NCBI GenBank assembly: GCA_965261225.1
Contig: OZ253456.1
Coordinates: 771,617 to 835,616 of the forward strand
Origin: Dehalococcoidia bacterium
GTDB taxonomy: Bacteria; Chloroflexota; Dehalococcoidia; Bin125
Direction: 5' to 3'
DNA: 64,000 nt
How positions within the stretch are numbered: position 1 is the first letter of the stretch; each line of letters starts with the position of its first letter. Of this stretch, positions 461-22,210 are shown one piece after another. The position numbers and the translations under genes are program-made. The notes beneath the pieces are model-generated. The model was not told the origin of the DNA and ran no database searches. It was given only the letters and a program-made list of their open reading frames with translations.

Positions 461-484
461 CGTTAGATTCTAACAAGTTTTACC

Positions 485-509
485 GCGTATAACTCGATCA
501 GTTATACGC
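485..509. promoter_or_regulatory. Perfect 10-bp inverted repeat, either an operator or a bidirectional terminator
   Basis: gcgtataact-cgatc-agttatacgc, read directly. It lies between the stop of the last dsbA-like gene (548) and the ATG of the ATPase gene (460), in an AT-rich spacer. Confidence 0.35.
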
Positions 510-547
510 GCATAAACTTGATATACATCCACCTGATTCGCCAGAAC

Positions 548-1222
548 TCACCCGGATTGAGCTGCCAGCTCCTTGACCCGCTCGATCAGCGCATCCGCCG
601 ACGTCGGGCCGCGCTCACCGTTGACCAGAATCGCCGGTGTGTTGGAGAGACCACGCGATACGGCGTCGGTGTGCTGACGGTAGATGCGGTCGAGGTGGGC
701 TTGGTCGTCCATGCATTGGGCAAACTGGTCAGTGTCGAGATCGAACTCCGAGGCCACGGCGACCGCGCCGTCTCGCGTGTACGCCTCACGGCTCGGACCC
801 TCGAAGTAGTAGTCGTGGAACTCCCACCAGGCGTCCTGATCGCCGGCGCACTCGGTCGCCAGCGAGGCCATCTCCGAGGGCAGGCCGTGATTGATGATGT
901 GGCGGTACTCGAACCGAGCCAGTCCGGTGGCAATTAGTTCCTCTTCGACGCGCGGCCCAACCTGGGTCGCGAAGTGGCGGCAGCCGCCTCAAAGGAAATC
1001 GGAATACTCCTCGATCACGACAGGCGCATCGGGGTCACCGAGCGAAGCCCGGTCGCGAATGACCTGCACCCGAGCTTCCTGCTCAACCTCCCCCGCCTGC
1101 TCCGTCTGTGCAGCTTGCGAATCGGTTTGCTGATCGTCGCCGTACCCGCCGCCGCAGGCCGCGAGCAGAATCGCGACAGCCACGATGGCGAGCACGCCTA
1201 TCAATATGCGTCGTGCGCTCAT
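548..1222 (-). CDS. DsbA-like thiol:disulfide oxidoreductase lipoprotein, predicted selenoprotein (U-G-G-C redox motif), paralog 1
   Basis: Track ORFs 989..1228 (N-terminus, lipobox LLAAC) and 548..871 (C-terminus) share one frame. The only interruption is TGA 989-991, read as ..EEYSDFL-U-GGC-RHF.., at the first Cys of the thioredoxin-fold CxxC. I translated 872-988 and found no other stop. Start taken at ATG 1222-1220 after GAGGGG. Confidence 0.8.
950..970 (-). promoter_or_regulatory. SECIS-like hairpin downstream of UGA 989-991
   Basis: RNA GCGACCCA-GGU-UGGGCCGC (one mismatch), starting 18 nt after the UGA. It encodes ..ATQVGPR.. Confidence 0.55.
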
Positions 1223-1224
1223 GA

Positions 1225-2148
1225 TCACCCCTCTTCTTCCTGCAATTGTGCCGCGAGTTCCATCACCTGTTCGATCAGAGCATCAGCGACGATCGCGCCG
1301 CCATTGCCGTTGATCCGCACGGTCGGCGTGCGGGAAAAGCCCGCTTCGGCCGCCGCGCGATGCTGGTTCTCGACGGCCTCAAGATGCGTCTGGTTGTCCA
1401 GGCATTGTGCGAACTGTTCAGTGTCCAGTGACAGCGACGCGGCAAACGCCACCGCGCCGTCGCGTGAGAAGTCCCAACTGGTCATGAAGTGGTCGTGGAA
1501 GTCCCACCAGCGACCCTGGTCGCCGCCGCACTCGGTCGCCAACGCGCCCAGCTCCGAAGGCAGCCCGTGGTTGATGATGTAAATGTACTCAAACCGCACC
1601 AGTCCAGTGCGGACCAACTCTTCGATCACCCGCGGCTCAACCTGAGCCGCGAACTTGCGACAAATCGGTCAAAGGAAATCGGCGTACTCGGTGATCACGA
1701 TCGCCGCGGCGGGGTCGCCGACGATATTTCGATTCGCAAACAGTCCTGCGCGGTGTCCAGACTCGATGATTTGGCCGACCATGGCCTGCTGCTCGGGCTC
1801 GTCTTCGGCCGGCTGTTCTTGTTGAGCCGGCGGATCAACCTCAGTCGACGCTTCGGTCGGTTGCTCCTGCGCGTCAGCCTGCTGAGGCGTCGCCGAATCG
1901 TCCGCGTCGTCGGCCGCCTGCTCGGACTGATCAGTCTGTGCGGCCTGCGCGGAGTCCTGAGACTCTGCCTCATCCTGCACCGATTCGCTCTCGCCGGCCG
2001 TGTATGGCGTGGCCGATTGTTCCTGCTGCTCTTGAGCCTCTGTTGCGGCAGCGGATCGTACCTGCGCAGGCTGAGGATCGTCAGCCCCCGACGAACAGGC
2101 CGCCAACAAGAGCACAACCGCTACGAGCGCCAGTCCCAACTTCAGCAT
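1225..2148 (-). CDS. DsbA-like lipoprotein, predicted selenoprotein (U-P-I-C), paralog 2
   Basis: ORFs 1669..2148 and 1225..1629 are in the same frame (924 nt). TGA 1669-1671 falls in ..ITEYADFL-U-PIC-RKFAAQVEPR.. Lipobox LLAAC is followed by an E/Q/A/D-rich linker. The stop overlaps the start region of paralog 1. Confidence 0.85.
1631..1650 (-). promoter_or_regulatory. SECIS-like hairpin downstream of UGA 1669-1671
   Basis: RNA GCGGCUCA-GGU-UGAGCCGC, a perfect 8-bp stem starting 18 nt after the UGA. Confidence 0.6.
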
Positions 2149-2150
2149 CG

Positions 2151-2960
2151 TCAGTCTCCCGCCTGTGCCTCGGACGCCTCAGCCGCCTCGCGGACCTGGT
2201 TGAGCAAGGCGCTCAGCGAGCGACCGCTCGGCTGTCCGTTGACCCTGATTGTCGGCGTCTGCCTGACTCCGTTGGCTCTCGCCTCCCACTGCATTCGCTG
2301 GATGCGATCTGCGTGTTCCTCATTGTCGATGCATTGCGCGAATCGCGCGACATCGAGGCCTTCATCGCGCGCGAGTTCGATCGCGCCGGCACGACTGAAC
2401 GTTCGCGCCAGTCCCTTGAGCAGATAGGCGTCGTGGAACTCCCACCATGCGCCCTGATCGCCCGCGCACTCAGTCGCCATCGCGGCGAACTCCGATGCCG
2501 CACCCAAGATGATGTAGTGCCGGTACTCGTACCGCGCCAGGCCGGTGCGTATCGTTTCTTCAATCAAGCGCGGCTCAAACTGAGCTGCAAAACTCCGGCA
2601 GCCCGGTCATTGAAAGTCGGAATACACGGTGATCAGGACCGGCGCCTCCGGATCGCCGAACACGTTGCGGACAAATGGCAACCCCCGTCGATGTCCAAAA
2701 TCGATCTCACCAGGCTTGGTTGCTGCCAGCTCGGAGTCCTGCTGCTGCGCGATCGACGCTTGACGCTCCGCGCGGTCGCTGCGCTGAGTGCCGGTCGCCG
2801 ACCCATCGCTCTGCTCCCCCGCGTCGCCGCCCGATCCACAGGCCGAAACGAGCAGCCCGAACCCCACCACCATTCCCACCAGTAACGCCGACAGTCGGAA
2901 GCCCACGAACATGAATCGACTGTACTCCAGGCAAGTACGCCAGGCGTTCACGAAACGCAT
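2151..2960 (-). CDS. DsbA-like lipoprotein, predicted selenoprotein (U-P-G-C), paralog 3
   Basis: ORFs 2607..2963 and 2151..2567 are in the same frame. TGA 2607-2609 falls in ..TVYSDFQ-U-PGC-RSFAAQFEPR.. Lipobox LVSAC. ATG at 2960 overlaps the TGA of paralog 4 (GAGGAGGAGTGATG). Confidence 0.85.
2568..2588 (-). promoter_or_regulatory. SECIS-like hairpin downstream of UGA 2607-2609
   Basis: RNA GCAGCUCA-GUU-UGAGCCGC (one mismatch), at the same offset as in the other paralogs. Confidence 0.55.
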
Positions 2961-3844
2961 CACTCCTCCTCCGCCTCTGCCATCTCTGCCGCCCGGTTGA
3001 CCGCCGCTTCGATGGCTTCGAACGTCGGAGCGACTCGCTCACCGTTGACAAACACACTCGGCGTCCCCTGCACCCCGCGAGCGAGCCCTTCGTCATGCGA
3101 GGCGTTGACCAGAGGGAACGTCTGACCCTCGCTCACACAAGTGACGAACTGCTCATAGTTCAAGCCCTCAAACGTGATCTGTCGGCGCAGACCAGCCTCG
3201 GTGTAGAGCGTGCCGTCGTCGGCCATGAAGCGATCATGCAAGGGCCAGAACGCGCCCTGATTCGCGGCGCATTCCACCACCACCGCGGCAAACACGGCCC
3301 GGTCGCCCAGGTACGGAAAGTGGCGGAAGACATACTTGGCCCGACCGGGCGCAATCAGTTGTTCAAGAATCATCGGCTCAACCTGAGCCGAAAAGCGCTG
3401 ACAGATCGGTCAAGTGAAGTCACCGTAGTAAAGGATTTCCACAGCCGAATCCGGGTCGCCAAGCACATGGCGCTCGGAGCGAATCCCCTTGTGCTCGCCA
3501 ACGATCTCCTCCGGCAAGACAACAACCTGCTGGTCTGCCCCGTCCTCCGGCTGAGCGGCAATCTGTTGCTCGGCTCGAGATTCCTCGGTCTGAGCCTGAT
3601 CGGCTCGCGCTTGTTCGACCTGAGCTTGTTCAGCCGGTGTCTCGGCTTGTTGCTCAAGCTGGGCCGGCTCATCGGCAACCGCGACATCTACGTCCTGTTG
3701 TTGTTCCTGCTCTGAAACCGTCGCCTGGCGTTCAACTCGTTGTGAGGTTTGGGAGCCTGTAGCTGCAGGTTCGGACTCACTCTCGGAGCCGCATGCAGCG
3801 GCGAACAAGCCAACAGCGAATAGACAGGCAAGTAGACGTTGCAT
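2960..3844 (-). CDS. DsbA-like lipoprotein, predicted selenoprotein (U-P-I-C), paralog 4 (first gene of the operon)
   Basis: ORFs 3410..3844 and 2960..3373 are in the same frame (885 nt). TGA 3410-3412 falls in ..ILYYGDFT-U-PIC-QRFSAQVEPM.. Lipobox FAAAC is followed by a Q/E/A-rich linker. Confidence 0.85.
3373..3391 (-). promoter_or_regulatory. SECIS-like hairpin downstream of UGA 3410-3412
   Basis: RNA UCGGCUCA-GGU-UGAGCCGA, a perfect 8-bp stem starting 18 nt after the UGA. Confidence 0.6.
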
Positions 3845-3985
3845 AACCTCAGCCTATCGGGGGAGCGGTGACCACTTGACGAGTGCCGAGAGTGCAACTA
3901 TCGTTCGATCTACACCCCCTGTACGCTTCGGCGACAGGGCGCGAGGCTGCCGCTAGGCAGCCTCAGCTATTTCCGGGATCACGTC

Positions 3986-4620: not shown

Positions 4621-6312
4621 CTAGCCCCGCAACCGCGACATCTCATCCCTGAGCTGCTGCAATCCCATCGGTCCCAGATCAAGCGCCGCCTGATGAAATC
4701 CCTTCAAATCAAACGCGTCGCCCAGCGACTCCCGCGCCGACTCCCGCGCCGCCAGCCATTCCCGTTCGCCCACCTTGTACGAGATCGCCTGACCGGGCCA
4801 GCCGAGGTAGCGGTCGACCTCGCTCGCGAGCATCTTCTGCGGGAAGAATGAGCGCTCGATCAGGAATGGCAGCGCCAGTTCGGGAGTCCAGGTTTCCCCG
4901 CCGTGGTACGGCTCCTGCTCCGGGATCGGCAGTTCCAGGTGCATCCCGATATCAATCACCACTCGCGCCGCGCGCAGTGCCTGGCTACTGAGCAGGCCCA
5001 TGTAGAAGGCGGGATCCTCGAGATAGCCCAGCTCCGCCATCAGCCGCTCGGCGTACAGCGCCCAGCCCTCGACATAACCCGACGTGCCCGCCAGCAGCCG
5101 CTGGTATCGCGTGAGCTGCTCGCCGAGATAGCGCGTGGTCCCAATCTGCAAGTGGTGTCCGGGCACGCCCTCGTGGTAGCAGACCGAGAGCTCGCGCCAG
5201 AGCGGGAAGCGAGTCTCGCCGCCGGTCGGATACCAGGTCCGGCCGGGACGCGAGAAGTCTTCCGACGGTCCCGTGTAATACATCGCCAACGCCCCACCGG
5301 GCGGCGCGATCATCGCCTCGATCTGCTGCACCGGCGCCGCGATGTCGAAGTGCGTGCCCTGCAGCGACTGCATCGTGTCGTCCTGCGTCTGCTGCATCCA
5401 CTCGCGGAACGCGTCCTCACCCTCAATCGCCCGAGCGTCGTCCGACTCAAGGATCGCAATCGCCTCAGCCGCCGTCGCGCCCGACGAAATCCGCTCCGCC
5501 GTCGACGCCATCTCCGACTGAATCCGCCACAGCTCTTCCCAGCCCCACTGATACGTCTCGTCAAGGTCGAGCTCAATCCCATTGAACCCACGAGAAGCCG
5601 CCTGATAACGCTCGCGACCAACCGGGTCATGAGGATTAGCCTTCGGCAAGTACACCGATTCCAACCACTCAGCCATCGCCGCATACCCCCGCTCCGCCGC
5701 CGCAACATTCGCACCACCATCAATACCCAGGCTGTCCACCAGATTCTGGAAAAACCCATTCCCAGTCCCCGCTTCACGCGGGGACCCGCTCGGTCCCGCC
5801 CCAGCCCACACCCGACACTGCGCAATCCCACCAAGAACCTGCCGCTGAGCCACCACAATCCCCTCATCCATCCCCGCCGCCAACGACGCCCGATAGTTCG
5901 CCAGCGCCTCCGGCACCGCGCCCATCCGCTCCACAATCCGCCCGTGATCCTCCTCCGTCTCGCGAGGCATCAGATCAAACACCTGCCGAGTGTTCTGCAG
6001 CGGAGAGGCGAGGATGTTCAGCGATCGCAGATGCTCACCCTGAGACTCCAGCTCGGTCTCAAAGTCAAAGCGCTCAAGCATCACATCCCGAGCCACCCGG
6101 TCCCGCTCCGTCTCCACATTAAGCAAGCGCAACGCCGCCTCCGCCTGCCGACGAATCGCCGACCGCTCCGCATGACCATCAGGAGAATAATCCGTCAGCT
6201 CCGTCTCCCGCCCCGGAATCCCCAAAGAATTCGCCATATTCGGATGGGCCGCCGCCAACGCCTCGACATACCAGTCCGAAATCTCCGAAGCGGTATTCAG
6301 TTCAGCACTCAT
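4621..6312 (-). CDS. DUF885 family protein (HExxH-like YHEGVPGHH motif)
   Basis: ORF 4621..6357. The sequence is typical of DUF885 (..WYPTGGETRFPLWRELSVCYHEGVPGHHLQ..). Start moved to the internal M (MSAELNTA..) because 6313-6357 overlaps an intergenic repeat copy. Confidence 0.8.
   Translation of the reverse strand: MSAELNTASEISDWYVEALAAAHPNMANSLGIPGRETELTDYSPDGHAERSAIRRQAEAALRLLNVETERDRVARDVMLERFDFETELESQGEHLRSLNILASPLQNTRQVFDLMPRETEEDHGRIVERMGAVPEALANYRASLAAGMDEGIVVAQRQVLGGIAQCRVWAGAGPSGSPREAGTGNGFFQNLVDSLGIDGGANVAAAERGYAAMAEWLESVYLPKANPHDPVGRERYQAASRGFNGIELDLDETYQWGWEELWRIQSEMASTAERISSGATAAEAIAILESDDARAIEGEDAFREWMQQTQDDTMQSLQGTHFDIAAPVQQIEAMIAPPGGALAMYYTGPSEDFSRPGRTWYPTGGETRFPLWRELSVCYHEGVPGHHLQIGTTRYLGEQLTRYQRLLAGTSGYVEGWALYAERLMAELGYLEDPAFYMGLLSSQALRAARVVIDIGMHLELPIPEQEPYHGGETWTPELALPFLIERSFFPQKMLASEVDRYLGWPGQAISYKVGEREWLAARESARESLGDAFDLKGFHQAALDLGPMGLQQLRDEMSRLRG
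5761..5793. repeat. Family A palindromic repeat copy lying inside the DUF885 coding sequence
   Basis: cccagtccccgcttcacgcggggacccgctcgg is identical to the intergenic copy at 29157-29189. Here it is translated in-frame as ..GAGPSGSPREAGTGNG.. Confidence 0.8.
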
Positions 6313-6329
6313 CAAAGACCTCATTCCCA

Positions 6330-6382
6330 AAAGCTCCCCCCTTGGGGGAGCTGTCACGAAGTGACTGAGGGGGCCGGCCCCC
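6330..6382. repeat. Family C palindromic repeat
   Basis: aaagctccccccttgggggagctgtcacgaagtgactgagggggccggcc. Related copies are at 8343, 20904, 25874, 25952 and 40447. Confidence 0.8.
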
Positions 6383-8391: not shown

Positions 8392-8479
8392 ACACAACAT
8401 CCGCCAACCCCAACACACCGACAGAACAAATGTCCGCATACCATCGACTCCACCCGTCGCCAGCCCGAAGGAGCAGTCA

Positions 8480-8827
8480 ATGTCCGAGCAGAAGCCATTC
8501 ATCCCCTTCGAGGGCAACGCCATCCGCCGCGCCCTCGGCGAGCTCGCCGCCACCGGCCCTGGCTACGTCCGACTCGGCGCTCTCAAGGTCATGGCCTCCA
8601 TGCTCGGTCTCTCCGACGATCCCCTCGCCCACGCCGATCCCCAGCGCGATCGACGACTCGATGCCGCCCTCGATGAGGTTGAAGCCATCCTCGGCGAGGC
8701 GCTCCGCAGCGAGACCAGGGTGCAGACCGCCGACCCGGACTCCCAATCCGGCCCCGAAGGCGGCGACGATCAAGACAACCAGGCAGAGCAGCAGGAAGAA
8801 GCCGACGATGACGACGAACCACCATAA
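8480..8827 (+). CDS. Hypothetical acidic protein, in the position of a small terminase subunit
   Basis: Internal ATG of ORF 8153..8827, preceded by GAAGGAG. It reads MSEQKPFIPFEGNAIRRALGEL... with a D/E/Q-rich tail, and overlaps the terminase start by 20 nt. Confidence 0.5.
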   Translation: MSEQKPFIPFEGNAIRRALGELAATGPGYVRLGALKVMASMLGLSDDPLAHADPQRDRRLDAALDEVEAILGEALRSETRVQTADPDSQSGPEGGDDQDNQAEQQEEADDDDEPP

Positions 8828-10217
8828 TTCCTCAGACCGCACGGTCCGTAAGGCCCTCAAAGCCCTCCATCGGCTCCGTTTTTTTTCTCCCACAGAGCGC
8901 CAACAAGAACTCTACGAAGAGATCTTCGACGCGTCCCCGGACAGCCTCACCCTGCTCGGCTACGGAGGCGCCATGGGCGGCGGCAAAACTCGCGCCGTCG
9001 TCGAACTCGCCATCGACGCCGCCCTCGCCTTCCCCGGCAACAACATCCTCGTCGCTCGACAACACTTCACCGACCTCTCCGGAACCACCATGAAGGCGTT
9101 CTACAACGCCTGCCCCGATGAGTACATCCGCAGCACGCAATCCGCCCCGACGCCACTCGCCAGGATCGCCCTCCCAAAGCGCCCCAACGACCACATCTCG
9201 ACCATCAACTTCCGACACCTCACCGACTGGTCCGGCCTCGGATCCCAGGAATATGGCGCCGTGCTGATCGACGAAGCGGGAGAGGTCGCCGAGGAGGCCG
9301 CGCAGATGCTGCTCACCCGACTCCGGCACCCCGCCCAGCCCCAGCGCTGGTTCGTCGCCGCATCCAATCCCTGGCCGGGCTGGTTCGAGCGCTGGTTCGC
9401 CCGACGCGAGCTGGACGAGGAAGCCTTCGCCGAAGCCGACGGGCGGATCGTCTACATCCCGGCGAAGATTCCCGACAACCCGCACCTGCCCTCGACCTAC
9501 GCCGCCCAGCAACGAGCGATTCAGCCCGGCGAGTGGGTCGACCGCTTCATCGAGGGCAGCTTCGACGCCTTCGACGGGCAAATCTACCAGCACTTCAGCC
9601 CCGACACACACCGATGGGACGCGCCCCTGCCGCCCTTCGCCCGATACGTCGGCGGACTCGACTTCGGCGGGCAATCGCCCAAGGACCACTACACCGCCGG
9701 CATCGTCGCCGGCCTCACCGACCAGCGCGCGCCCTGCGGACCCAACATCCTGATCCGGCTGGGCGAGTTTGAGGAGCGCGGCCCCGGCGTCACCCAGCGA
9801 CTCGAGCAGTGGCAACAGTCCTGGCATCGCAAACTCGGCCCCATCCAATGGTGCGCCGACCGCTCACAGTCGGCCTGGATCGACCACCAACGCCGACAGG
9901 GCCACCACGTCGTCCCCAGCAAGGGAGGGCCGGACAGTGTCAACTGGGGCATCGCCTTAGTACAACAACGACTCAACGGAGACCCACCCAGCGCCTACTA
10001 CACCCCCGCAATGGATAAGTTCCCCGGCCGGATGCGTGAGTATCAGTGGGATCAGTCAACCACCGACCAGAGTCCAAAACCAAAGAAACGAAACGACGAC
10101 CTGCTTGACGCCGACCGCTACATGCACGAAATCGCAACCCAGCAACCAAGAACCAGGACAACATTCAAGCTCACCACCCCCGTCAGAGGCCGAGACGCCC
10201 GCTGGAGGGGAGCATGA
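8808..10217 (+). CDS. Phage terminase large subunit (ATPase plus nuclease)
   Basis: Frame of ORF 8430..10217, start taken at ATG 8808 (MTTNHHNSSDRTV..). Walker A YGGAMGGGKTRA, Walker B AVLIDEAGE, ..IPAKIPDNPHLP.., and nuclease part GGLDFGG...DDLLDADRYMHE. Confidence 0.8.
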   Translation: MTTNHHNSSDRTVRKALKALHRLRFFSPTERQQELYEEIFDASPDSLTLLGYGGAMGGGKTRAVVELAIDAALAFPGNNILVARQHFTDLSGTTMKAFYNACPDEYIRSTQSAPTPLARIALPKRPNDHISTINFRHLTDWSGLGSQEYGAVLIDEAGEVAEEAAQMLLTRLRHPAQPQRWFVAASNPWPGWFERWFARRELDEEAFAEADGRIVYIPAKIPDNPHLPSTYAAQQRAIQPGEWVDRFIEGSFDAFDGQIYQHFSPDTHRWDAPLPPFARYVGGLDFGGQSPKDHYTAGIVAGLTDQRAPCGPNILIRLGEFEERGPGVTQRLEQWQQSWHRKLGPIQWCADRSQSAWIDHQRRQGHHVVPSKGGPDSVNWGIALVQQRLNGDPPSAYYTPAMDKFPGRMREYQWDQSTTDQSPKPKKRNDDLLDADRYMHEIATQQPRTRTTFKLTTPVRGRDARWRGA

Positions 10218-10226
10218 CCCGTGAGG

Positions 10227-10487
10227 TCAGTCGAGGAAGGCGATGAGCAGACCGACAGCGCCGATAATCAATCCGGTCGCAATCATCATGGCGAGCAGCA
10301 GTTGCGTGCGCATCTCGGCCATGTCGCGCCGCATCTCTGTCATCAGCAACTTGAACTTCAGGTCCGACTCACGACGTCCGTACGTGTGGTTGTCAATCGC
10401 GTCTGCCGCCTCGTCAGCCTGCGCCTCCTCGACCCCCAACGAGTGGAAGGCGCGCCTGAGCCGGACGATCGGATTCATCGCCGCCAT
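10227..10487 (-). CDS. Tail-anchored small membrane protein, paralog A (DUF1640/XhlA-like architecture)
   Basis: 86 aa: MAAMNPIVRLRRAFHSLGVEEAQADEAADAI.., a charged helical middle, and a C-terminal TM LLLAMMIATGLIIGAVGLLIAFL. Confidence 0.7.
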   Translation of the reverse strand: MAAMNPIVRLRRAFHSLGVEEAQADEAADAIDNHTYGRRESDLKFKLLMTEMRRDMAEMRTQLLLAMMIATGLIIGAVGLLIAFLD

Positions 10488-10499
10488 GCTCGACCCTCC

Positions 10500-10793
10500 T
10501 CAGTTGACTGCGACGATGATGGCGACTGCGACGCCGACGATCACGATGATCTCGATCAACAGCTCCCGTCGATGCGCGATCATCATCTCCCGCATCTCGG
10601 CGGTCTGCTGCCGCAGCTCCGCCATCATGCGCTCAAAGCGCAGGTCCGATTCGCGCCGGCTGTAGCCGTATTCGCTGATCGCATCGGCGGCCTCTTCCGA
10701 AATGTCGTCAGCGGCGACATCGGTCAAGGGCGCACTCGCCCCCAACGAGCGAAACGCCCGTCGCAACCGCAGAATCGGATTCATCGCCGCCAT
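10500..10793 (-). CDS. Tail-anchored small membrane protein, paralog B
   Basis: 97 aa with the same N-terminal MAAMNPILRLRRAFRSLG and C-terminal ..HRRELLIEIIVIVGVAVAIIVAVN. A 12-nt gap containing GGAGGG separates it from its neighbour. Confidence 0.75.
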   Translation of the reverse strand: MAAMNPILRLRRAFRSLGASAPLTDVAADDISEEAADAISEYGYSRRESDLRFERMMAELRQQTAEMREMMIAHRRELLIEIIVIVGVAVAIIVAVN

Positions 10794-10805
10794 GCTCGAC
10801 CCTCC

Positions 10806-11054
10806 TCAGTTGAGTGCGACGATGATGGCGACTGCGACGCCGACGATCACGATGATCTCGATCAACAGCTCTCGTCGATGCGCAGCCATCATCTCCTGCA
10901 TCTTGGCCATCTCACGCTGGAACATCAACTCAGTCTCGCGTCGGCTAAAGGAATGATCGCCGAGCGCATCCGCTACCTCGTCGACCTGCTCATCATCCAC
11001 GCCCAACGAGCGAAATGCCCGTCGCAAACGCAGGATCGGGTTCATCGCCGCCAT
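10806..11054 (-). CDS. Tail-anchored small membrane protein, paralog C
   Basis: 82 aa. The N- and C-termini are identical to paralog B at protein level, and long DNA stretches are shared (10470-10580 versus 10776-10885). Confidence 0.75.
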   Translation of the reverse strand: MAAMNPILRLRRAFRSLGVDDEQVDEVADALGDHSFSRRETELMFQREMAKMQEMMAAHRRELLIEIIVIVGVAVAIIVALN

Positions 11055-11066
11055 GCCCGTTCCTCC

Positions 11067-11297
11067 TCAGTTGACCAGCGCCAGAAGCGCGACGCCCAGC
11101 CCGACGATGATCAGCACGCCGAGCAGCAACGGATTGCGATCCTCCGCCATGATCCTGGCGATCCGCTCCTCGAATTCGCGGCGACTCAGGTAGATGTCGT
11201 CCAGCACCGTCGACAGCTCGTCCGCCTCCTGAGGCTGCGCCCCGACCTGTCGAAACAAGCGGCGCAATCGCAAGATCGGGTTCATGCTCGACATCAC
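11067..11297 (-). CDS. Tail-anchored small membrane protein, paralog D
   Basis: 76 aa: MMSSMNPILRLRRLFRQVG..., C-terminal TM LLLGVLIIVGLGVALLALV. It lies 33 nt downstream of the methyltransferase stop, with GAGG before the ATG. Confidence 0.7.
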   Translation of the reverse strand: MMSSMNPILRLRRLFRQVGAQPQEADELSTVLDDIYLSRREFEERIARIMAEDRNPLLLGVLIIVGLGVALLALVN

Positions 11298-11330
11298 AGC
11301 CTCGCGTTCCTCGTCCCCAATATACCGTAC

Positions 11331-14300
11331 TTATCGCCTATCTGTTCTACGTTGAGAATCCTCCCCGTTCTCAGTAAAGACCACCCGAGACCGCTTCCCC
11401 CCATGAATCTGAGGCTCCCGAGCCAGCTTGCGCCGAATCAAATCAATCGGCCCATCGTCCGCCACCAAGGATTCCGGAAGCCCCAAAACATCAACCAAAA
11501 TCGCCCGGTCCAACTTCGCCCGAGCCGGGTCCTCATCAATCTGGTCAAAAGGAAGAAACCGCTCCGCAGAAAGCAACGCAAACTGCCGCTTGGCCTCGGT
11601 ATGCTGAGCATCGGTAAGGGTGCGGGTGTCGAGAGTAGGAATGTTAGGAATGCCGCTGACGGTTGTAGTGCCACGACCGTCTTGTGTCTTGTTGGCGACC
11701 CACCAGTGGATAAGCAGTCCGAGTGTCGAGTTGCACCACAGCGAGAACGCGTATTCGTGTTCAGAGTCTTGCAGGATGACAGAAGGCCACGCCCGCCCTC
11801 CAATGCACTTGCGCTCAGTCATTGCCACAATCAACGACTGAGAGTTGAATCGGAGATCGCGGTTATAGTGGGCTCGTGTAGCAGTCGCCCACACATGGGC
11901 GGCTTTGTCCTGCAACAATTCCTCCATACCCTCATCGATTCTCAACAATCCTTCGGAATCAGGTTCCACGGTCAGGCGACGTTCGCGTTTCGCCTTGTGC
12001 GCCCAAAGAGTTGGATACGTCGGTACAGGTCCTTGTGGAGGCGACTGAATGTCGAATGGCCCCCGAATTTGCCTCGCTCCGCCGACGAAGGACTGCTCTA
12101 TGCCATTGATGTCACGATCGACCGGGCCGCGTTCTGCAATTCTTCCTATAGGTACTACGGCGATAGGTATGTCCTCTGCTCCCGGTTCACCTATACGCTG
12201 CATTCTTCGCAGAGTAAGTTGGTGCGCGAACTGTGCCAATTCGAGATCGAGAATCCCGCAGAGAGTCCAGGGCCCCGATTCTTGAAGCGCCATAGAACTT
12301 ATCGTTCCGTAAGTTGCTCCGCCGAGTTGCAACGCTGTAACACCGCTACCGTCCTCAATAGAACGAACATTGGAGTTGCGCTGCAACTTACGTATCTCAT
12401 TGCCGAGTTGCTCTGCCTCGGTCGCCGTCGTTGGAAGCTTCCGCAAGACCACGAACCAGTTGTGGCGATCGTTGTCCTTCGCAACCTGATCGTGCGTGAG
12501 TACCACGAGGCATTCGGCCATTCCGGTGTCGGCAGAGAACGACCGGTCAAAGCTTCCCTCCGCCGCGATTGTGACAACGGTGGTCTCTCTGTAGTCATCT
12601 TGCCATTGACCTCGCAGTTTGTCCCAGGAACTGCCACTCATCGACGAAAGGGGCAGAACAAACGCCAAACTTCCGTCCTCGTTTCGCTTGCGATGTGCGA
12701 GTTCTGCGAACAATGCCGCCATACCTGCATTTCCTGCAGCGGCAGAGCCTTTAGTAAGAGATTTCTCGCGGCGAGACATCGCGTCCTGCTGCTGAGGCGT
12801 CGTCTCGAATGCAGAGTAGGCAGGATTTGGAACGTCGCTATGTGCACCCTCGTGGTTCGTCGGGCGCGTAAAGGGTGGATTCATGATCACCAGATCGAAC
12901 TTGTCGTGACCAACTCTTGTCCTCAAATCGGCAACATCTTCCGGAAGACGTCCTCCAGACGTGGTTGCAGATGCATCCTCAATCAGACTTGGCTGTACGT
13001 CTTTAGCGAGCAGCTCCAGCGACCCAATCGACGCCGACTCCCCGCCGTACGGCATCGTCAGCAGGCACTCACCATCGAAGGGCACGTCAGGATGTGCCCC
13101 CGCGAGCATCGTCGCCGTCAGATGCACCGCGATATTGAGCACATCGAGTCCGACCAGCCCGTTCTTCATCATCGGCGCGTGCAGCGCTCGCGGGTCGCCG
13201 CCGTTGAGCTCGTGCAGCAGCGAGATGCGCTGGTAGGCCGCCGAGAGCAGCGTCCCCGTGCCGCAGGCGAAGTCGCCGATCTGCAGCGAGGCGATCGTCT
13301 CCTCGTCGCCCCACTCCGCCCCACCCGGCGCACGGTCGGCGGGAATCGCCAACCCGGCCAGCAGCGCCGCCGCCGCCGGTCGCGTGTAGAATGTCGCCAG
13401 GAACTTCCGGTCCGCAATCAGACGCTGAAAGATCACCCCGGTCAGGTCGTGCGACTTGGTCACCCCGCGTTGCACCAGACGCAGCGCGCCCTTGCGCAAT
13501 GGCGTCAGCACCGCCGCGGCCGTCTCTTCCGGCAGCTTGCGGACAATCTCCGACGCCGTCGCGAAAATCGGCCAGTAGTTGATCTCCAGCACAGACTCCC
13601 ATTCCAGAGTCAGGGCGTCAATGTCGAAGTCGCCCGGCGGCAGCAGCTCACGCAGGTGTCGCAGACGTCGCTGCGCGCCTGCATCGGTGATGAAAAACTC
13701 GGCCCCGGCCAGCGCCTCATGGAAAATCAGCGCATTGATCACAACAGTCATCGCCATCCGGCGAGTCTGACCGCCCTGATCATCGGATTGTCCAAGCAGG
13801 TCGGCGATATCAGAGCCAATCGACCCCGTTGCGTGGGAGCCGTGCCGGTAAGTGAAGGCAGCCGCGGCGTCCTCAATGCTCTGCTCGAGGATCACACCCA
13901 TGCGCTCGACGCGCGGCGCCGGTGTCGAGGCCCGATGCGCCAACATCGCCAGGTCACGGGCAGAGCCCGTCAGCCAACCGCTCTGCGGCAAGCGCTCCAC
14001 GCCGCCGCCACGCGTGCGCGTCAGCAGCGCGTATTCCAGACCGTCCGTGGTCCGCAACGTCTGTCGCAATTCCTTTCCGTCGATCTCCCAAACCTCCGGC
14101 GGATAGACCAGCGCGATTACGCTCTCGATCGGCTTGCGGGTCTCGTTGACGACCTGTCCCAGCCGATCACGCGCATCCAATTCGGCGCTGTCGTAGTTCG
14201 CTTTGTCCGCCTCAATCGCCACAGGCCACTGCGCCGCTTCTTCAATCAGCACATCGGGCCGCTTGGCAGAGGATCGAATCGTGCGAGTCTCTTCGAAATG

Positions 14301-14378
14301 CACCTGCCAACTGTGAGGCCGAAGCTCCCGCAGCACCTCGCCCAGAGCGACATTGATCGTGTGCTCATGAGTAGGCAT
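11331..14378 (-). CDS. Large single-chain N6-adenine DNA methyltransferase with an N-terminal nuclease-like domain (type IIG/IIL-like restriction-modification enzyme)
   Basis: 1015-aa ORF. SAM motif I is DFACGTGTLL and catalytic motif IV is VIMNPPFTRP, a gamma-class order. The N-terminus has a possible PD-(D/E)xK-like signature (KRPDVLIEE..WPVAIEADK). The roughly 400-aa C-terminal region has visibly lower G+C, as expected for a target-recognition domain. Confidence 0.75.
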   Translation of the reverse strand: MPTHEHTINVALGEVLRELRPHSWQVHFEETRTIRSSAKRPDVLIEEAAQWPVAIEADKANYDSAELDARDRLGQVVNETRKPIESVIALVYPPEVWEIDGKELRQTLRTTDGLEYALLTRTRGGGVERLPQSGWLTGSARDLAMLAHRASTPAPRVERMGVILEQSIEDAAAAFTYRHGSHATGSIGSDIADLLGQSDDQGGQTRRMAMTVVINALIFHEALAGAEFFITDAGAQRRLRHLRELLPPGDFDIDALTLEWESVLEINYWPIFATASEIVRKLPEETAAAVLTPLRKGALRLVQRGVTKSHDLTGVIFQRLIADRKFLATFYTRPAAAALLAGLAIPADRAPGGAEWGDEETIASLQIGDFACGTGTLLSAAYQRISLLHELNGGDPRALHAPMMKNGLVGLDVLNIAVHLTATMLAGAHPDVPFDGECLLTMPYGGESASIGSLELLAKDVQPSLIEDASATTSGGRLPEDVADLRTRVGHDKFDLVIMNPPFTRPTNHEGAHSDVPNPAYSAFETTPQQQDAMSRREKSLTKGSAAAGNAGMAALFAELAHRKRNEDGSLAFVLPLSSMSGSSWDKLRGQWQDDYRETTVVTIAAEGSFDRSFSADTGMAECLVVLTHDQVAKDNDRHNWFVVLRKLPTTATEAEQLGNEIRKLQRNSNVRSIEDGSGVTALQLGGATYGTISSMALQESGPWTLCGILDLELAQFAHQLTLRRMQRIGEPGAEDIPIAVVPIGRIAERGPVDRDINGIEQSFVGGARQIRGPFDIQSPPQGPVPTYPTLWAHKAKRERRLTVEPDSEGLLRIDEGMEELLQDKAAHVWATATRAHYNRDLRFNSQSLIVAMTERKCIGGRAWPSVILQDSEHEYAFSLWCNSTLGLLIHWWVANKTQDGRGTTTVSGIPNIPTLDTRTLTDAQHTEAKRQFALLSAERFLPFDQIDEDPARAKLDRAILVDVLGLPESLVADDGPIDLIRRKLAREPQIHGGKRSRVVFTENGEDSQRRTDRR

Positions 14379-14410
14379 CGGGCGCTCAGTCTAGACGCCG
14401 TCCGCCACCC

Positions 14411-14803
14411 TCAAACCGACTCGATGACGAGGTTCGGGATGCGCTCGAAGTGGCGGCGGTTGTTGGTCAGTAGGGTCAGGTCGTGCTGTAGCGCCGTCGC
14501 CCCGATCAGGAGGTCCATGCTGCCGAACAAATTGCCTTGCCTGCGCAAACGATTGCGTTCGATTCCGAACAGGCGGGCTGTCTCGAAGTCGACTCCCAAC
14601 AGCACAAGGTCTCCAACAAACATCCGTAACTGCTGTTCACGTTGCGCACGATCAGGCGCGCCCGCGACTCCCTCGTATAGCTCGGCCAATGCGATCACAC
14701 TGATGGCAATGCCGAGAGGTTCCAGGGATACGATGCGACTCACAAGTCGTTCGATGCCGTTGAGGTACTCGATGGCCCAGTCGGAGTCCAACAGGTATTG
14801 CAT
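14411..14803 (-). CDS. vapC: PIN-domain toxin VapC
   Basis: Internal ATG of ORF 14411..14983: MQYLLDSDWAIEYL...ALAELYEG...MDLLIGATALQHDLTLLTNNRRHFERIP, which are PIN acidic motifs. Confidence 0.8.
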   Translation of the reverse strand: MQYLLDSDWAIEYLNGIERLVSRIVSLEPLGIAISVIALAELYEGVAGAPDRAQREQQLRMFVGDLVLLGVDFETARLFGIERNRLRRQGNLFGSMDLLIGATALQHDLTLLTNNRRHFERIPNLVIESV

Positions 14804-14807
14804 CGTC

Positions 14808-15056
14808 TCAGAGATGCCTGGGCGGTCGTGTGCCGTCGATGCGGGCTTGGTAGATGTCGCGGATGAATTGTTCGTGGTCATCGAACATATCAGCCCAGAC
14901 ACCTGCAGACCTGGCCAGCCCCCCCTTGTCGGATGGTGGCTGCTTGTGGTCATCCAGGGTGAGGACGACTTCCTGGTCTTCACTGAGGTCGATGTCCTCG
15001 AGCGGCTCGAGGACGCCGTTGTGGTAGCGGGCGCGGAAGTTCTTGAGCGTCATCAT
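14808..15056 (-). CDS. DUF104/AF2212-like antitoxin (VapB-type partner)
   Basis: 82 aa: MMTLKNFRARYHNGVLEPLEDIDLSEDQEVVLTL.. is typical of DUF104. It ends 4 nt upstream of vapC. Confidence 0.7.
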   Translation of the reverse strand: MMTLKNFRARYHNGVLEPLEDIDLSEDQEVVLTLDDHKQPPSDKGGLARSAGVWADMFDDHEQFIRDIYQARIDGTRPPRHL

Positions 15057-15116
15057 CGCCTCCGAGCTTCACCGTATCAGTCTGGCCCAGGCGCGGTCAC
15101 GCCCTACACTCTGCCC

Positions 15117-16334
15117 ATGACCGACCAACCTGGACCCCTCGACGGTGTGACTGTCCTCGACCTCACCGAGCACATTGCCGGGCCGTATTGCACCAAGCTG
15201 TTTGCCGACTTTGGCGCCGATGTGATCAAGGTCGAGCCTCACGACGGCGACGCGTCGCGGTCGGTCGGGCCGTACTACGAGGGCCTACCGGGGCTTGAGC
15301 GGTCGGGGACGTTCTTCTACTTCAACACCAACAAGCGCTCGCTCGTGCTCGACCTGGAGCACGCCGACGCCGGCACGGTAGTCGAGCGGCTGATTCAGCG
15401 CGCCGACATCGTGGTCGAGTCGCAGCCGCCGGGTCGGTTGGACGAGCTGGGCCTCGGCTGGGAGCGGATCTCGTCGTTGCGCGACGACCTGCCGCTGGTC
15501 TCGATCTCGCCGTTCGGCCACGACTCGCCCTACCGCGACTACAAGGTGTCGGACCTGGTGCTCTACGGCTTCGCCGGCGAGATGTACTCAATCGGCGTGC
15601 AGGACCGCGAGCCGGTCAAGATGTTTGGCACGGCCTCGCTGGTCGAGTGCGGCGCGGCCGCGGCGACGGCGTCCCTGGGCGCGCTGACAGCGGCCGAACT
15701 GCAGGGCATCGGCCAACAGGTCGACTTTTCCATGGCCGACGCACAGTTCAACGGTGTCGACCGTCGCCACGCCGCGACCATTGGCTGGGAGTTCGCGGGC
15801 CGCAAGTCGCTGCGCGCGCCCGGTCCGGCGGCCGGCATGCTGACCGGCGTCTATCCCTGCGCCGACGGCTACGTCGAGTTCTCGGGCGCCGCCATCCGCA
15901 TCCCCAGGCTGAACGAGATGCTCGGTCGTCCCGAGTGGCTGCAAGACGAGAAGTGGTGGCAGCCAGGCATCGGTCTGAACCCGGAGCTGGTGGACGAGTT
16001 CAACGCACACTTCCTGCCCTGGTCGCTAGAGCGAACCAAGCGAGACATCTGGGCTACGGCGCGAGAAGCCAGAGTGCTCTGCGGCCCACTCTTCTCAGTC
16101 GACGAATTGTTCGAGGACACCCACTTCAGCGACCGAGGCTTCTGGGCAACGGCCAATCATGCGGAGCTGGGAGAAGTCCAGCTCCCCGGCCGGCCACTAA
16201 TCATGCCGGCATCGCCGTGGAGCCTGAGGCGCCCACCGCCACTGCTCGGCGAGCATACGGACGAGGTGTTGTCGGAGTGCGGGTTTGGAGCGGAAGAGGT
16301 GGAGGCGCTGCGGAGGTCTGGAGTGGTAAAATGA
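15117..16334 (+). CDS. Family III CoA-transferase (CaiB/BaiF-like)
   Basis: 3' part of the artefactual 2037-aa ORF. ATG 15117: MTDQPGPLDGVTVLDLTEHIAGPYCTKLFADFGADVIKVEP..., C-terminal ..LGEHTDEVLSECGFGAEEVEALRRSGVV. Confidence 0.85.
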   Translation: MTDQPGPLDGVTVLDLTEHIAGPYCTKLFADFGADVIKVEPHDGDASRSVGPYYEGLPGLERSGTFFYFNTNKRSLVLDLEHADAGTVVERLIQRADIVVESQPPGRLDELGLGWERISSLRDDLPLVSISPFGHDSPYRDYKVSDLVLYGFAGEMYSIGVQDREPVKMFGTASLVECGAAAATASLGALTAAELQGIGQQVDFSMADAQFNGVDRRHAATIGWEFAGRKSLRAPGPAAGMLTGVYPCADGYVEFSGAAIRIPRLNEMLGRPEWLQDEKWWQPGIGLNPELVDEFNAHFLPWSLERTKRDIWATAREARVLCGPLFSVDELFEDTHFSDRGFWATANHAELGEVQLPGRPLIMPASPWSLRRPPPLLGEHTDEVLSECGFGAEEVEALRRSGVVK

Positions 16335-22088: not shown

Positions 22089-22210
22089 TGCAACAGAATA
22101 GTGGGCGCCGTGTCGCGCTCCATGTGCAAGGCTCGCCAACGAGCTGCCTGGTTCGATCTCAATGGTTCCGCTTGCAGAGACTGATGCATCACTCCCCTCT
22201 CCTCCCTTGC

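Follow-up and report, generated by a model that had tools for sequence, protein, structure and literature searches.

In Escherichia coli fdhF and fdnG and in Moorella thermoacetica, the SECIS element is an apical hairpin that shows a G-U or G-G loop to SelB at a set distance from the UGA codon. For bacteria in general, the bSECISearch model (Zhang and Gladyshev 2005, restated in PMC13188914) allows a loop of 3-9 nt and a stem of 4-16 bp, and expects a G within the first two loop positions, 16-37 nt between UGA and loop, and a minimum free energy (MFE) of -7.5 kcal/mol or lower (PMC13188914). Selenoproteins with a thioredoxin-like fold include marine-metagenome DsbA-like proteins (COG2761/PF01323) with a UxxC motif and a predicted bSECIS (PMC1088965), and NF041057, the Rcas_1661 family thioredoxin-like (seleno)lipoprotein, which PMC13188914 includes under the name 'DsbG-like protein' among its selenoprotein families (UxxC). 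Dehalococcoidia metagenome-assembled genomes (MAGs) are among the most selenoprotein-rich of bacteria (PMC13326102). Here we analyse a 64-kb stretch of DNA (hereafter, the window) from a Dehalococcoidia (Chloroflexota) bacterium, in which four tandem genes, A to D, lie on the minus strand.

Four thioredoxin-like genes with in-frame UGA codons

Each of the four genes carries a single in-frame TGA, located at the first Cys position of a CxxC active site (Table 1). When homologues were aligned at this codon, TGA was found in 156 and TGC or TGT in 20. The Pfam domain Thioredoxin_4 (PF13462) matches all four proteins far above its gathering threshold of 23.2 bits (95.1, 95.1, 81.6 and 80.5 bits for A, B, C and D; E 7e-27 for gene A) and the match runs across the TGA in 4/4 genes, so that a complete thioredoxin domain requires the TGA to be read through. 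We consider it very probable, from this positional conservation, that the four UGAs are read as selenocysteine (Sec). All four genes also terminate with TGA; that of gene A, at 2962-2960, is overlapped or abutted by the start of gene B (GTG 2963 or ATG 2960). For paralogue C, all 46 public protein clusters found are C-terminal fragments of about 133 aa that begin after the UGA and are named 'thioredoxin domain-containing protein' or similar, indicating that annotators took the TGA as a stop.

The paralogues are 31-36% identical in protein to paralogue A, and the four-gene array is conserved in relatives, some of which have three or five copies. Lipobox-like sequences were read by eye from the translations (FAAAC, VSAC, LAAC and LAAC for A, B, C and D). 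In NCBIfam, each of the four proteins matches NF041057 best and essentially nothing else (E 1e-31 to 1e-41), with scores of 108.3, 123.7, 136.5 and 141.1 bits that stay under the curated 190-bit cutoff. The same holds for eight Chloroflexota relatives (seven Sec forms and the Cys form L051), which reach at most 171 bits. By these scores the A-D proteins are classed as relatives of NF041057 and not as equivalog members. The match to PF01323 is weaker than the Thioredoxin_4/COG1651-like match, and the closest solved structure for the gene C protein is Bacillus subtilis BdbD (3EU3, E 2.6e-14).

Table 1. Genes, in-frame UGA codons and candidate SECIS hairpins of the four-gene array (window coordinates)
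Feature	Position	Strand	Description
Gene A	2960-3844	-	Lipoprotein signal (…LFAAAC), acidic/Gln-rich linker, DsbA-like thioredoxin domain, motif U-P-I-C
UGA of gene A	3410-3412	-	Residue 145, in UxxC
Candidate SECIS hairpin A	3373-3391	-	UCGGCUCA-GGU-UGAGCCGA, 8/8 pairs, -11.7 kcal/mol
Gene B	2151-2963	-	Architecture as in A, motif U-P-G-C
UGA of gene B	2607-2609	-	Residue 119, in UxxC
Candidate SECIS hairpin B	2570-2588	-	GCAGCUCA-GUU-UGAGCCGC, 7/8 pairs, one A·C; 19-mer -7.0 kcal/mol
Gene C	1225-2148	-	Architecture as in A, lipobox LLAAC, motif U-P-I-C
UGA of gene C	1669-1671	-	Residue 160, in UxxC
Candidate SECIS hairpin C	1632-1650	-	GCGGCUCA-GGU-UGAGCCGC, 8/8 pairs, -13.2 kcal/mol
Gene D	548-1228	-	Architecture as in A, lipobox LLAAC, short linker, motif U-G-G-C
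UGA of gene D	989-991	-	Residue 80, in UxxC
Candidate SECIS hairpin D	952-970	-	GCGACCCA-GGU-UGGGCCGC, 7/8 pairs, one A·C; 19-mer -8.1 kcal/mol

A hairpin in fixed register after each UGA

In each of A-D, a 19-nt segment able to form a stem with a 3-nt loop starts exactly 18 nt 3' of the in-frame TGA, placing the start of the loop 26 nt from the UGA (18-nt spacer plus 8-nt stem arm). A preliminary description of this locus had reported the 18-nt offset and the sequences of the stems and loops, all of which proved correct. It had also given every hairpin an 8-bp stem, which holds for A and C, while B and D form seven of eight pairs with one A·C mismatch each; its coordinates were right for A and ran 1-2 nt too far at the ends for B, C and D. 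The change in stem D that it took for compensatory is a true double change, in which one U-A pair of the other paralogues has become C-G, a variant that recurs in 17 D-type sequences of the covariation alignment described below; stem D also contains the A·C mismatch, which is uncompensated. This mismatch weakens the stem; it is conserved in the D clade and in some B genes, and is accounted for by an invariant Pro codon in which no compensating change can occur. Hairpin C can be extended outward by 1-4 pairs (about 1628-1654), giving 9-12 bp in all. A possible lower stem that takes in the UGA was seen in the D clade only, and none such is conserved in A, B or C.

With flanks included, the resulting 27-nt segments fold at -12.5, -8.6, -17.7 and -11.0 kcal/mol for A, B, C and D. 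Relative to shuffled sequences, these segments gave z = -4.1, -2.5, -4.2 and -1.1, and 63-nt windows gave z = -1.2, -0.1, -4.6 and +0.9 (same order). The comparison with shuffles was thus mixed: folding was no better than the controls for B and D and for three of four 63-nt windows, an outcome that the preliminary description had named as refuting its reading. Single-sequence thermodynamics for B and D are unconvincing, although shuffling is a weak test of so short a hairpin (19 nt) in DNA of 62% GC.

Chance occurrence was also estimated within the window. At least 7/8 pairs around a 3-nt loop are possible at 0.8% of all window positions, or at 0.13% when the loop is required to read G[G/U]N, and 20 of the 1812 TGA triplets in the window, the four of A-D included, have a hairpin of that kind at +18. 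Random TGAs in DNA this rich in GC are often followed by a hairpin that fits the bSECIS model, and one hairpin copy alone is not beyond chance. Judged across paralogues and relatives, recurrence in the same register in four paralogues and in 135/149 homologues is beyond chance. None of the four terminal TGA stops of genes A-D, all of which were checked, is followed by the hairpin.

Conservation of the stem-loop at the RNA level

The hairpin was compared between Sec and Cys forms in a set of about 170 relatives, comprising 149 non-redundant TGA forms from Dehalococcoidia and other Chloroflexota and 20 Cys forms. In the A-D register, at least 7/8 pairs are present in 135 of the 149 TGA forms, and none of the 20 Cys forms has more than 5/8 pairs at the fixed register. 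The median energy of the 19-mer is -12.7 kcal/mol in TGA forms versus -1.6 kcal/mol in Cys forms (Mann-Whitney p = 6e-14), a contrast of which part could reflect divergence, as the Cys controls are all distant (at most 45% identity to the window proteins). Among the homologues collected, the A-D clades themselves yielded no Cys form. At one locus (L034), two Cys paralogues adjoin a Sec paralogue, and both are without the hairpin. The +18/26-nt spacing is invariant in about 140 homologues. The more distant Sec forms of Anaerolineales/Chloroflexia type (e.g. L059) have a different hairpin, with a loop starting 23 nt past the UGA, and have lost the conserved Pro at +12. Across this comparison set, the data show the A-D type of hairpin to be present only where the codon is UGA.

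To examine covariation, 135 sequences were aligned. Compensatory changes were observed at four stem pairs: pair 27-35 (U-A 112, C-G 17, G-C 3), pair 29-33 (A-U 117, G-C 7, G-U 1), pair 22-40 (G-C 110, A-U 4, U-A 1) and pair 21-41 (C-G 58, U-A 10, U-G 10), the count coming largely from a few clades and representing about six independent events. In total, 86.6% of cells are paired, versus 32-40% when partners are slid. The lower stem tolerates U-G wobbles (39 at pair 19-43, 44 at pair 20-42 and 10 at pair 21-41), and RNAalifold recovered the four apical pairs and no others from the full alignment. In the loop, base 1 (column 30) is G in 135/135 sequences, while at base 2 (column 31) 102 sequences have G and the other 33 have U. 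Both comparative checks set out in the preliminary description, on Cys homologues and on orthologue covariation, therefore came out in favour of its reading of the hairpins as functional elements, which is further supported by suppressed synonymous variation and by agreement with the bSECIS model (both below).

We consider it highly likely, given these patterns, that the four hairpins are bSECIS elements and that the operon in which they lie encodes four extracytoplasmic lipoproteins, DsbA/DsbG-like thiol-disulfide oxidoreductases; we infer that the hairpins bind SelB. By the established bacterial pathway, a tethered complex would bring Sec-tRNA(Sec) to the A site of a ribosome arriving at the UGA, in competition with RF2, and translation would continue to yield the full-length protein, its redox centre being U-x-x-C; the terminal TGA of each gene, having no hairpin, would end translation. 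Sec use by this genome is supported indirectly by a fifth selenoprotein gene of the window, unrelated to A-D. It encodes a UGSC-family (seleno)protein with UGA at the family's Sec position, and 3' of this UGA lies the apex CA-GUG-UG, the same apex as in A-D. On the opposing side, a tRNA search of the 64-kb window found none, no tRNA-Sec was found in any homologue locus examined, and the ten larger window ORFs checked for selA, selB, selC and selD held nothing related. The related genomes found include sponge-associated MAGs.

In other systems, a structure 3' of a stop codon can promote its read-through, and on that precedent the hairpins could act independently of SelB, as a pause or road-block for near-cognate read-through of UGA (e.g. 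by Cys or Trp) or as an aid to export or folding during translation. We regard this as highly improbable. The hairpin is tied to a UGA at a catalytic Cys position, the classic Sec/Cys pair, its spacing lies within the SECIS range, and its loop obeys the rule G[G/U]N, as do SelB-dependent elements, with an invariant G at a synonymous site that a pure pause element would not need. The UGSC gene moreover represents a second curated (seleno)protein family in the window, and the class Dehalococcoidia is documented as Sec-using (PMC13326102).

The palindrome might instead be a by-product, without RNA function, of the conserved peptide A-A-Q-V-E-P in helix alpha-1 past the CxxC. This peptide is conserved and adjoins the active site, Cys-containing BdbD likewise keeps F at +6 and P at +12, and AQVEP recurs unchanged in the Cys form L051. 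However, L051 encodes it as GCC CAG GTG GAG CCG and forms no hairpin, while Sec forms encode A-A-Q-V-E-P as GCG GCU CAG GUU GAG CCG, in rare and self-complementary codons. GCU makes up 6% of Ala codons elsewhere versus 110/116 in the stem-loop, and GUU 7% of Val codons elsewhere versus 90/91. Synonymous codon entropy at codons +7 to +12 is 0.16, 0.35, 0.00, 0.09, 0.07 and 0.17 bits, against expected values of 1.57, 1.57, 0.69, 1.45, 0.87 and 1.46 bits, a drop that covers exactly the six stem-loop codons and leaves those on either side normal. Furthermore, residue +10, encoded at the loop, may be V, F, A, S, D or L with the RNA constraints kept, and several amino-acid replacements arising in one arm (Glu to Gly or Ala, Gln to Arg) are accompanied by a synonymous third-position change opposite them in the other. 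Substitutions in these homologues show the stem-loop to be conserved at the RNA level, independently of the encoded peptide, and the by-product reading, to which we give very little credence, appears already largely refuted. As A-A-Q-V-E-P occurs also in a Cys relative, and the Sec forms use rare self-complementary codons, the putative SECIS looks to have been tuned from an existing peptide: codons of a pre-existing helix alpha-1 would have been adjusted at synonymous sites.

An inverted repeat could also work in DNA, where a protein would bind the palindrome, or in an antisense transcript folded into a hairpin. As DNA, the core comes close to a perfect palindrome, and the A·C mismatches conserved on the sense strand would become G·U wobbles when read from the antisense strand. 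This, too, we find very hard to credit, since the distance to the sense-strand UGA does not vary in about 140 genes, the loop is asymmetric and shows G[G/U]N in the sense direction, the lower-stem U·G wobbles (pairs 19-43, 20-42 and 21-41) work on the sense strand only, the repeat is absent from Cys forms, and the invariant Pro codon accounts for the A·C mismatch. Finally, that the TGAs are plain stops in split or decaying genes, as the post-UGA fragments making up the 46 public paralogue C clusters might suggest, or are reassigned genome-wide, with the hairpins irrelevant, has almost no probability and seems already refuted by conservation: TGA occupies the same catalytic position in 156 homologues with purifying selection on both halves and a Pfam domain spanning it, a domain could not function without its signal peptide and the first residue of its active site, and genes A-D themselves end in TGA.

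Implications and comparison with known systems

Reading the hairpins as SECIS elements has consequences for annotation, since 3-5 DsbA/DsbG-like selenoprotein genes per such genome would be cut at the UGA by public gene calls; as these calls start after the UGA, the signal peptide, linker and catalytic Sec are missing from databases. It would also place several Sec-containing thiol-disulfide oxidoreductases outside the Dehalococcoidia cytoplasm. In terms of method, synonymous-site entropy together with the Sec/Cys contrast separates RNA from peptide constraint in a dual-coding element, and the consensus GCGGCUCA-GKN-UGAGCCGC at +18 can be used as a search seed. More speculatively, and with considerable doubt, we suggest that Dehalococcoidia may have a lineage-specific SECIS class, in which a GC-rich stem bears the apex C-A-G-[G/U]-N-U-G, a further context rule places a U immediately before the UGA, and rare codons preserve the signal at synonymous sites; such a class would have arisen from retuned A-A-Q-V-E-P helix codons and been long kept in a conserved four-gene extracytoplasmic selenolipoprotein battery. 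If so, the apex shared with the UGSC gene would be a SelB recognition signature for finding the rest of the selenoproteomes of Dehalococcoidia, reported to be very large.

Among described proteins, NF041057 shares with the A-D proteins a Chloroflexota origin, a lipoprotein signal, a thioredoxin fold and the motif U/C-x-x-C, whereas A-D score below its cutoff, have long acidic/Gln-rich linkers and occur as a paralogue array. BdbD (3EU3), an extracytoplasmic DsbA-like thiol oxidase, is likewise membrane-tethered and has F at +6 and P at +12 after its CPxC motif, but it uses Cys, not Sec, and the bdbD gene, unlike A-D, needs no SECIS. The marine DsbA-like selenoproteins (PMC1088965) are also UxxC thiol-disulfide oxidoreductases with a predicted bSECIS, from an uncultured marine-type bacterium, and belong to a different subfamily.

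For the RNA, no Rfam family matched within the window at gathering thresholds, and relaxing the search to E up to 10 over positions 500-3900 gave chance-level matches only. The A-D hairpins have no sequence similarity to the SECIS elements of E. coli fdhF/fdnG or M. thermoacetica. They share with these an apical G-loop hairpin and the dual coding of protein and RNA, and differ in having no bulged U in the upper stem, a loop of 3 nt rather than 4-6 nt and, in A, B and C, a UGA that lies outside a conserved lower helix. With the published bSECIS model, the hairpins agree in every sequence feature. Each closely follows, within coding sequence, an in-frame UGA whose counterpart in 20 homologues is a Cys codon; a loop of 3 nt (5 nt in CAG-UUG variants) sits on a stem in which seven or all of the 8 pairs form and which reaches 12 bp in C; the loop reads G[G/U]N throughout, with 26 nt between UGA and loop; the MFE is low enough, for hairpin B only with flanks; and the compensatory changes and collapse of synonymous entropy indicate an RNA structure under selection. 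The N1-G-[G/U]-N-N2 pattern of the model is the same, with A and U as the closing pair, and the sequence of the stem (GCGGCUCA/UGAGCCGC) varies unusually little among paralogues whose proteins are only about one-third identical. With a loop at the small end of the range and an A·C in B and D, the hairpins differ from the model in nothing essential; by these features they are ordinary bacterial SECIS elements, and the known working of bacterial SECIS is unchanged.

Four UGA-interrupted genes and their hairpins

Genes A-D, four neighbouring DsbA-like lipoprotein genes, are closely packed across 548-3844 of the minus strand, with stop and start codons overlapping or separated by a gap of 0-3 nt, and each reading frame carries a single TGA interruption. 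The products share an N-terminal hydrophobic signal with a lipobox-like Cys, an acidic/Gln-rich low-complexity linker and a DsbA-like thioredoxin domain, and the paralogues have only 31-36% protein identity to A. In all four genes the Pfam Thioredoxin_4 match crosses the internal TGA (E 1e-22 to 7e-27), and TGA is not reassigned, because the terminal stop of each gene is TGA too. The top match for all four proteins was NCBIfam NF041057 (108-141 bits, under the 190-bit cutoff), and eight related Chloroflexota proteins (seven selenocysteine (Sec) forms and the Cys form L051) likewise scored under this cutoff; the A-D proteins are thus related to a known selenolipoprotein family but fall outside the curated equivalog. 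Searching with the protein of paralogue C retrieved 46 public clusters (P0001-P0046), named, where a name was given, 'thioredoxin domain-containing protein' or 'protein-disulfide isomerase'. All 46 are ~133-aa fragments beginning after the UGA and none is full length, so public MAG annotations mis-call this family systematically.

Coordinates of genes, hairpins and other features in the window
Feature	Position	Strand	Motif or sequence	Details
Gene A	2960-3844	-	U-P-I-C	internal TGA 3412-3410
Gene B	2151-2963	-	U-P-G-C	internal TGA 2609-2607
Gene C	1225-2148	-	U-P-I-C	internal TGA 1671-1669
Gene D	548-1228	-	U-G-G-C	internal TGA 991-989
Hairpin A	3391-3373		UCGGCUCA-GGU-UGAGCCGA	8/8 pairs
Hairpin B	2588-2570		GCAGCUCA-GUU-UGAGCCGC	7/8 pairs, one A·C
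Hairpin C	1650-1632		GCGGCUCA-GGU-UGAGCCGC	8/8 pairs, extends to 9-12 bp
Hairpin D	970-952		GCGACCCA-GGU-UGGGCCGC	7/8 pairs, one A·C
Possible lower helix, D clade	about 940-998	-	UUUCC-UUUGA with UCGAAGAGG	-7 to +2 (UGA included) with +43 to +51
Inverted repeat	484-510	-	CGCGTATAAC-TGATCGA-GTTATACGCG	perfect 10-bp, ~40 nt past D stop
UGSC-family (seleno)protein gene	39911-40438	+	U-G-S-C	UGA 40193-40195; NF041046, 116 bits, cutoff 125
UGSC-gene hairpin	40209-40223	+	CGUGCA-GUG-UGCACG	loop begins 19 nt after UGA
ORF with phage terminase large-subunit match	8430-10217	+		Terminase_3, E 1.8e-8
2037-aa ORF	10221-16334	+		directly after Terminase_3 ORF
Neighbour gene	4621-6357	-
Neighbour gene	16912-18237	+
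Neighbour gene	19677-22139	-
Neighbour gene	23529-25316	+
Neighbour gene	32659-34221	+

A 19-nt inverted repeat with a 3-nt loop starts exactly 18 nt 3' of each internal TGA, the offset claimed in the preliminary description. The hairpin sequences reported there were correct on re-reading of the window, three of the end coordinates were 1-2 nt off, and the proposed 8-bp stems are strictly true for A and C, with one pair fewer in B and D.

Taken alone, each of these hairpins is unremarkable in the window. Structures with at least 7/8 pairs and a 3-nt loop occur at 0.8% of all window positions, and such a hairpin lies at +18 after 20 of 1812 TGA triplets. Scanning all read-through TGAs with generic rules for bacterial selenocysteine insertion sequence (bSECIS) hairpins returned dozens of equally good hairpins in non-coding frames, and the bSECIS model alone is therefore without specificity in the window; a filter by GC content per codon position was too strict, keeping C alone of A-D, and exposed the UGSC gene. 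A window-wide scan with the pattern GGCTCANNNTGAGCC gave nothing convincing besides A, B and C, and Rfam gave zero matches at gathering thresholds across the window and only chance-level matches at E up to 10 over 500-3900. Comparison with shuffled controls, which had been proposed as a check, decides neither for nor against SECIS function: for A-D, z was -1.2, -0.1, -4.6 and +0.9 in 63-nt windows, with only C significant, and -4.1, -2.5, -4.2 and -1.1 in 27-nt segments. We did not take the 63-nt test as decisive because the element is 19 nt long within 62% GC sequence.

Elsewhere in the window, the spacer between gene D and the gene after it contains the inverted repeat, which for this genome is rich in AT and is followed by no T run; it could be an operator or terminator-like element. 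The terminase-like ORF and the ORF behind it may be a prophage or mobile-element remnant. The five neighbour genes encode, in the order of the table, a DUF885 protein, two CoA-transferase family III proteins (one of them double-length, at 820 aa), an ammonium transporter and a carboxyl transferase; none of the five is a selenium-metabolism gene.

Selenocysteine and cysteine forms among relatives

Scanning one genome for each prokaryotic species yielded 74 loci, 73 of them from Chloroflexota (mostly Dehalococcoidia MAGs, several from sponge metagenomes) and one, L071, from a Gemmatimonadetes MAG. The closest has 93-96% protein identity to the window, and the A-B-C-D array is kept in many relatives, with three or five members in some. 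A tblastn search of these loci with the four domains identified the U-aligned codon in 178 genes, as TGA in 156 (Sec forms), TGC/TGT in 20 (Cys forms) and others in 2. With duplicates removed, 135/149 TGA genes have at least 7/8 pairs at this same register (positions +21 to +39, counted from the codon's first base), whereas none of the 20 Cys genes, all distant at no more than 45% identity to the window proteins, has more than 5 of 8; median 19-mer energies were -12.7 and -1.6 kcal/mol, respectively (Mann-Whitney p = 6e-14). The expectation that Cys homologues would lack the hairpin was thus borne out, with the distance of the Cys forms as a caveat. No Cys form was found inside the A-D clades, the search with paralogue C giving only the post-UGA fragments. 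The Anaerolineales Cys form L051 encodes the same peptide, F-A-Q-V-E-P, with the codons GCC CAG GTG GAG CCG and has no hairpin, and at locus L034, where two Cys paralogues lie beside one Sec paralogue in one genome, the hairpin is present in the Sec paralogue only.

The canonical sequence is absent from nine more divergent TGA forms, most of which carry an alternative hairpin in that region, such as CCGC-UGGC-GCGG in L059, whose loop begins 23 nt after the UGA. In the Anaerolineales/Chloroflexia-type Sec forms L059, L064, L068 and L073 (about 3061-3130), with the motif U-PYCGRF-AAGAGRQ, the conserved ...VEP... is replaced, including the Pro at codon +12 from the Sec-UGA, and most carry a different hairpin; L051, a related Cys form, retains FAQVEP. 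Within this clade, the demands of the RNA appear to have prevailed over those of the peptide. Another type of Dehalococcoidia paralogue (L039, L047, L048 (3883) and L056; U-PGC-xxF-AR-x-A-x-P) is a lipoprotein with a long linker and a different short hairpin, which in L047 is CGCCC-GUG-GGGCG with its loop ~22 nt after the UGA; this type is without counterpart in the window.

Covariation and synonymous-site constraint

Covariation was scored on a gap-free alignment of 135 distinct sequences, using the structure originally proposed and three extra pairs. Pairing was found in 86.6% of alignment cells, compared to 32-40% with the 3' partners slid by 1-3 columns, and the observed covariation score was reached by no shuffle. 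Substitutions are distributed over pairs 27-35 (U-A 112, C-G 17, G-C 3), 29-33 (A-U 117, G-C 7, G-U 1), 22-40 (G-C 110, A-U 4, U-A 1, wobbles 7) and 21-41 (C-G 58, U-A 10, U-G 10), and represent roughly six independent events, judged from clade membership; the proposed test against orthologues favours the hairpin. In the D clade, where Glu (GAG) is replaced by Gly (GGG), the partner base has gone from U to C, and in the L026, L030 and L031 C genes, where Glu is replaced by Ala (GCG), it has gone from U to G; the partner in these Glu replacements is the third base of an Ala/Thr codon. Likewise, Gln (CAG) to Arg (CGG) is accompanied by U to C at the next codon's third base. That a synonymous site follows an amino-acid replacement 6-8 nt away cannot be explained by protein selection. 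In D, the conserved A·C mismatch results from an Ala to Thr change; the facing base is the first of an invariant Pro codon, and that codon is unable to compensate. RNAalifold on all 135 sequences returned four apical pairs only, because clade-specific A·C mismatches veto the lower pairs.

A possible lower stem including the UGA, searched for across clades, emerged in the D clade only (gene D and 19 orthologues) and is not claimed here; it shows several U-A/U-G switches and a single compensatory change. Between this possible helix and the SECIS hairpin sits a small additional hairpin, GGCGGCUGCCGCC; A and C have no equivalent consensus.

Codon entropy was calculated for 143 Sec genes from sequences with the majority amino acid, taking codon usage in the remainder of the same genes as the expectation. 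Observed and expected values were 0.16 and 1.57 bits at codon +7, 0.35 and 1.57 at +8, 0.00 and 0.69 at +9, 0.09 and 1.45 at +10, 0.07 and 0.87 at +11, and 0.17 and 1.46 at +12, with normal entropy at +1 to +6 and from +13 on. At their fixed sites GCU accounts for 110/116 Ala codons and GUU for 90/91 Val codons, compared to 6% and 7% elsewhere. In 135/135 sequences the loop opens with G, supplied by the third position of the Gln codon, and the second loop base is only G or U although the encoded +10 residue varies (V, F, A, S, D, L). These frozen synonymous sites and fixed loop bases separate the RNA constraint from the peptide constraint, and conservation of the peptide alone is contradicted by at least two of our tests. 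Local gene conversion could be invoked for the uniformity of the stem-loop, but it would homogenise the flanks too, and the flanking codons show normal entropy.

At codon -1 (window 3415-3413, 2612-2610, 1674-1672 and 994-992), a rare U-ending codon is held at a synonymous site in A, C and D orthologues: ACT in 33/33 A orthologues (6% of Thr codons elsewhere) and CTT in 53/58 C and D orthologues with Leu (3% of Leu codons elsewhere). In B this codon is CAA or CAG, and the base directly 3' of the Sec-UGA is C, G or A, never U. The codon -1 bias may reflect a context rule for Sec insertion versus termination.

Taken together, the Sec/Cys contrast, covariation and synonymous sites support the SECIS interpretation of the preliminary description, itself slightly idealised in its details: the A-D hairpins are very probably bacterial SECIS elements, which would be bound by SelB. 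Two or more tests also contradict each of the other readings, which are read-through or pausing caused by a structure independent of SelB, a palindrome acting in DNA or in antisense RNA, and plain stop codons.

A fifth candidate gene and comparison with known selenoproteins

The UGSC-family gene is a fifth candidate. Its hairpin is identical in a 78%-identical orthologue (L115), in which two upstream synonymous sites differ. The hairpin apex, CA-GUG-UG, resembles the CA-GGU-UG of the DsbA-like genes, and both fit CA-GKN-UG, a similarity that we regard as a lead and not a result. The Sec/Cys comparison for this gene comprises only two versus two sequences, one Cys form having a strong hairpin by chance. 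Judged by its sequence, the gene may be read as an independent sign of Sec use in this genome. We found no tRNA in the 64-kb window and no tRNA-Sec in loci L001-L074; selA, selB and selD were not seen in the sequence covered, and ten larger window ORFs are unrelated to Sec machinery.

Searching metagenomes for the exact 19-mer outside the F/W/Y codon context gave 40 matches. One is a family variant (L101), and none reveals a further selenoprotein family that has the identical hairpin. L110 was rejected as a further Sec gene: a TGA lies 18 nt upstream of its 19-mer, yet is antisense to a sulfatase gene. The UGA context is absent from the remaining matches.

Knowledge of UxxC selenoproteins of the DsbA-like and DsbG-like kinds dates back to 2004-2005 (PMC1088965, PMC1794560), and the DsbG-like family of a 2026 review (PMC13188914) is NF041057, "Rcas_1661 family thioredoxin-like (seleno)lipoprotein". 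Two Dehalococcoidia MAGs are among the ten most selenoprotein-rich bacteria in the BSepDB paper (PMC13326102); Sec use in Dehalococcoidia is thus documented, and genes A-D may already be catalogued in BSepDB. The nearest solved structure to their products, BdbD of B. subtilis, is Cys-containing. As far as sequence comparison can tell, the A-D element is a bacterial SECIS of regular form, carried by unannotated relatives of a selenoprotein family that is already known. It is of use in annotation and illustrates dual coding in a worked case, but would be no surprise to a specialist. [quoted passage not shown] The A-D elements agree with it in every respect, with a 3-nt loop (G-[G/U]-U) closed by an A-U pair, stems of 8-12 bp, a spacing of 26 nt and energies of -8.6 to -17.7 kcal/mol with flanks.
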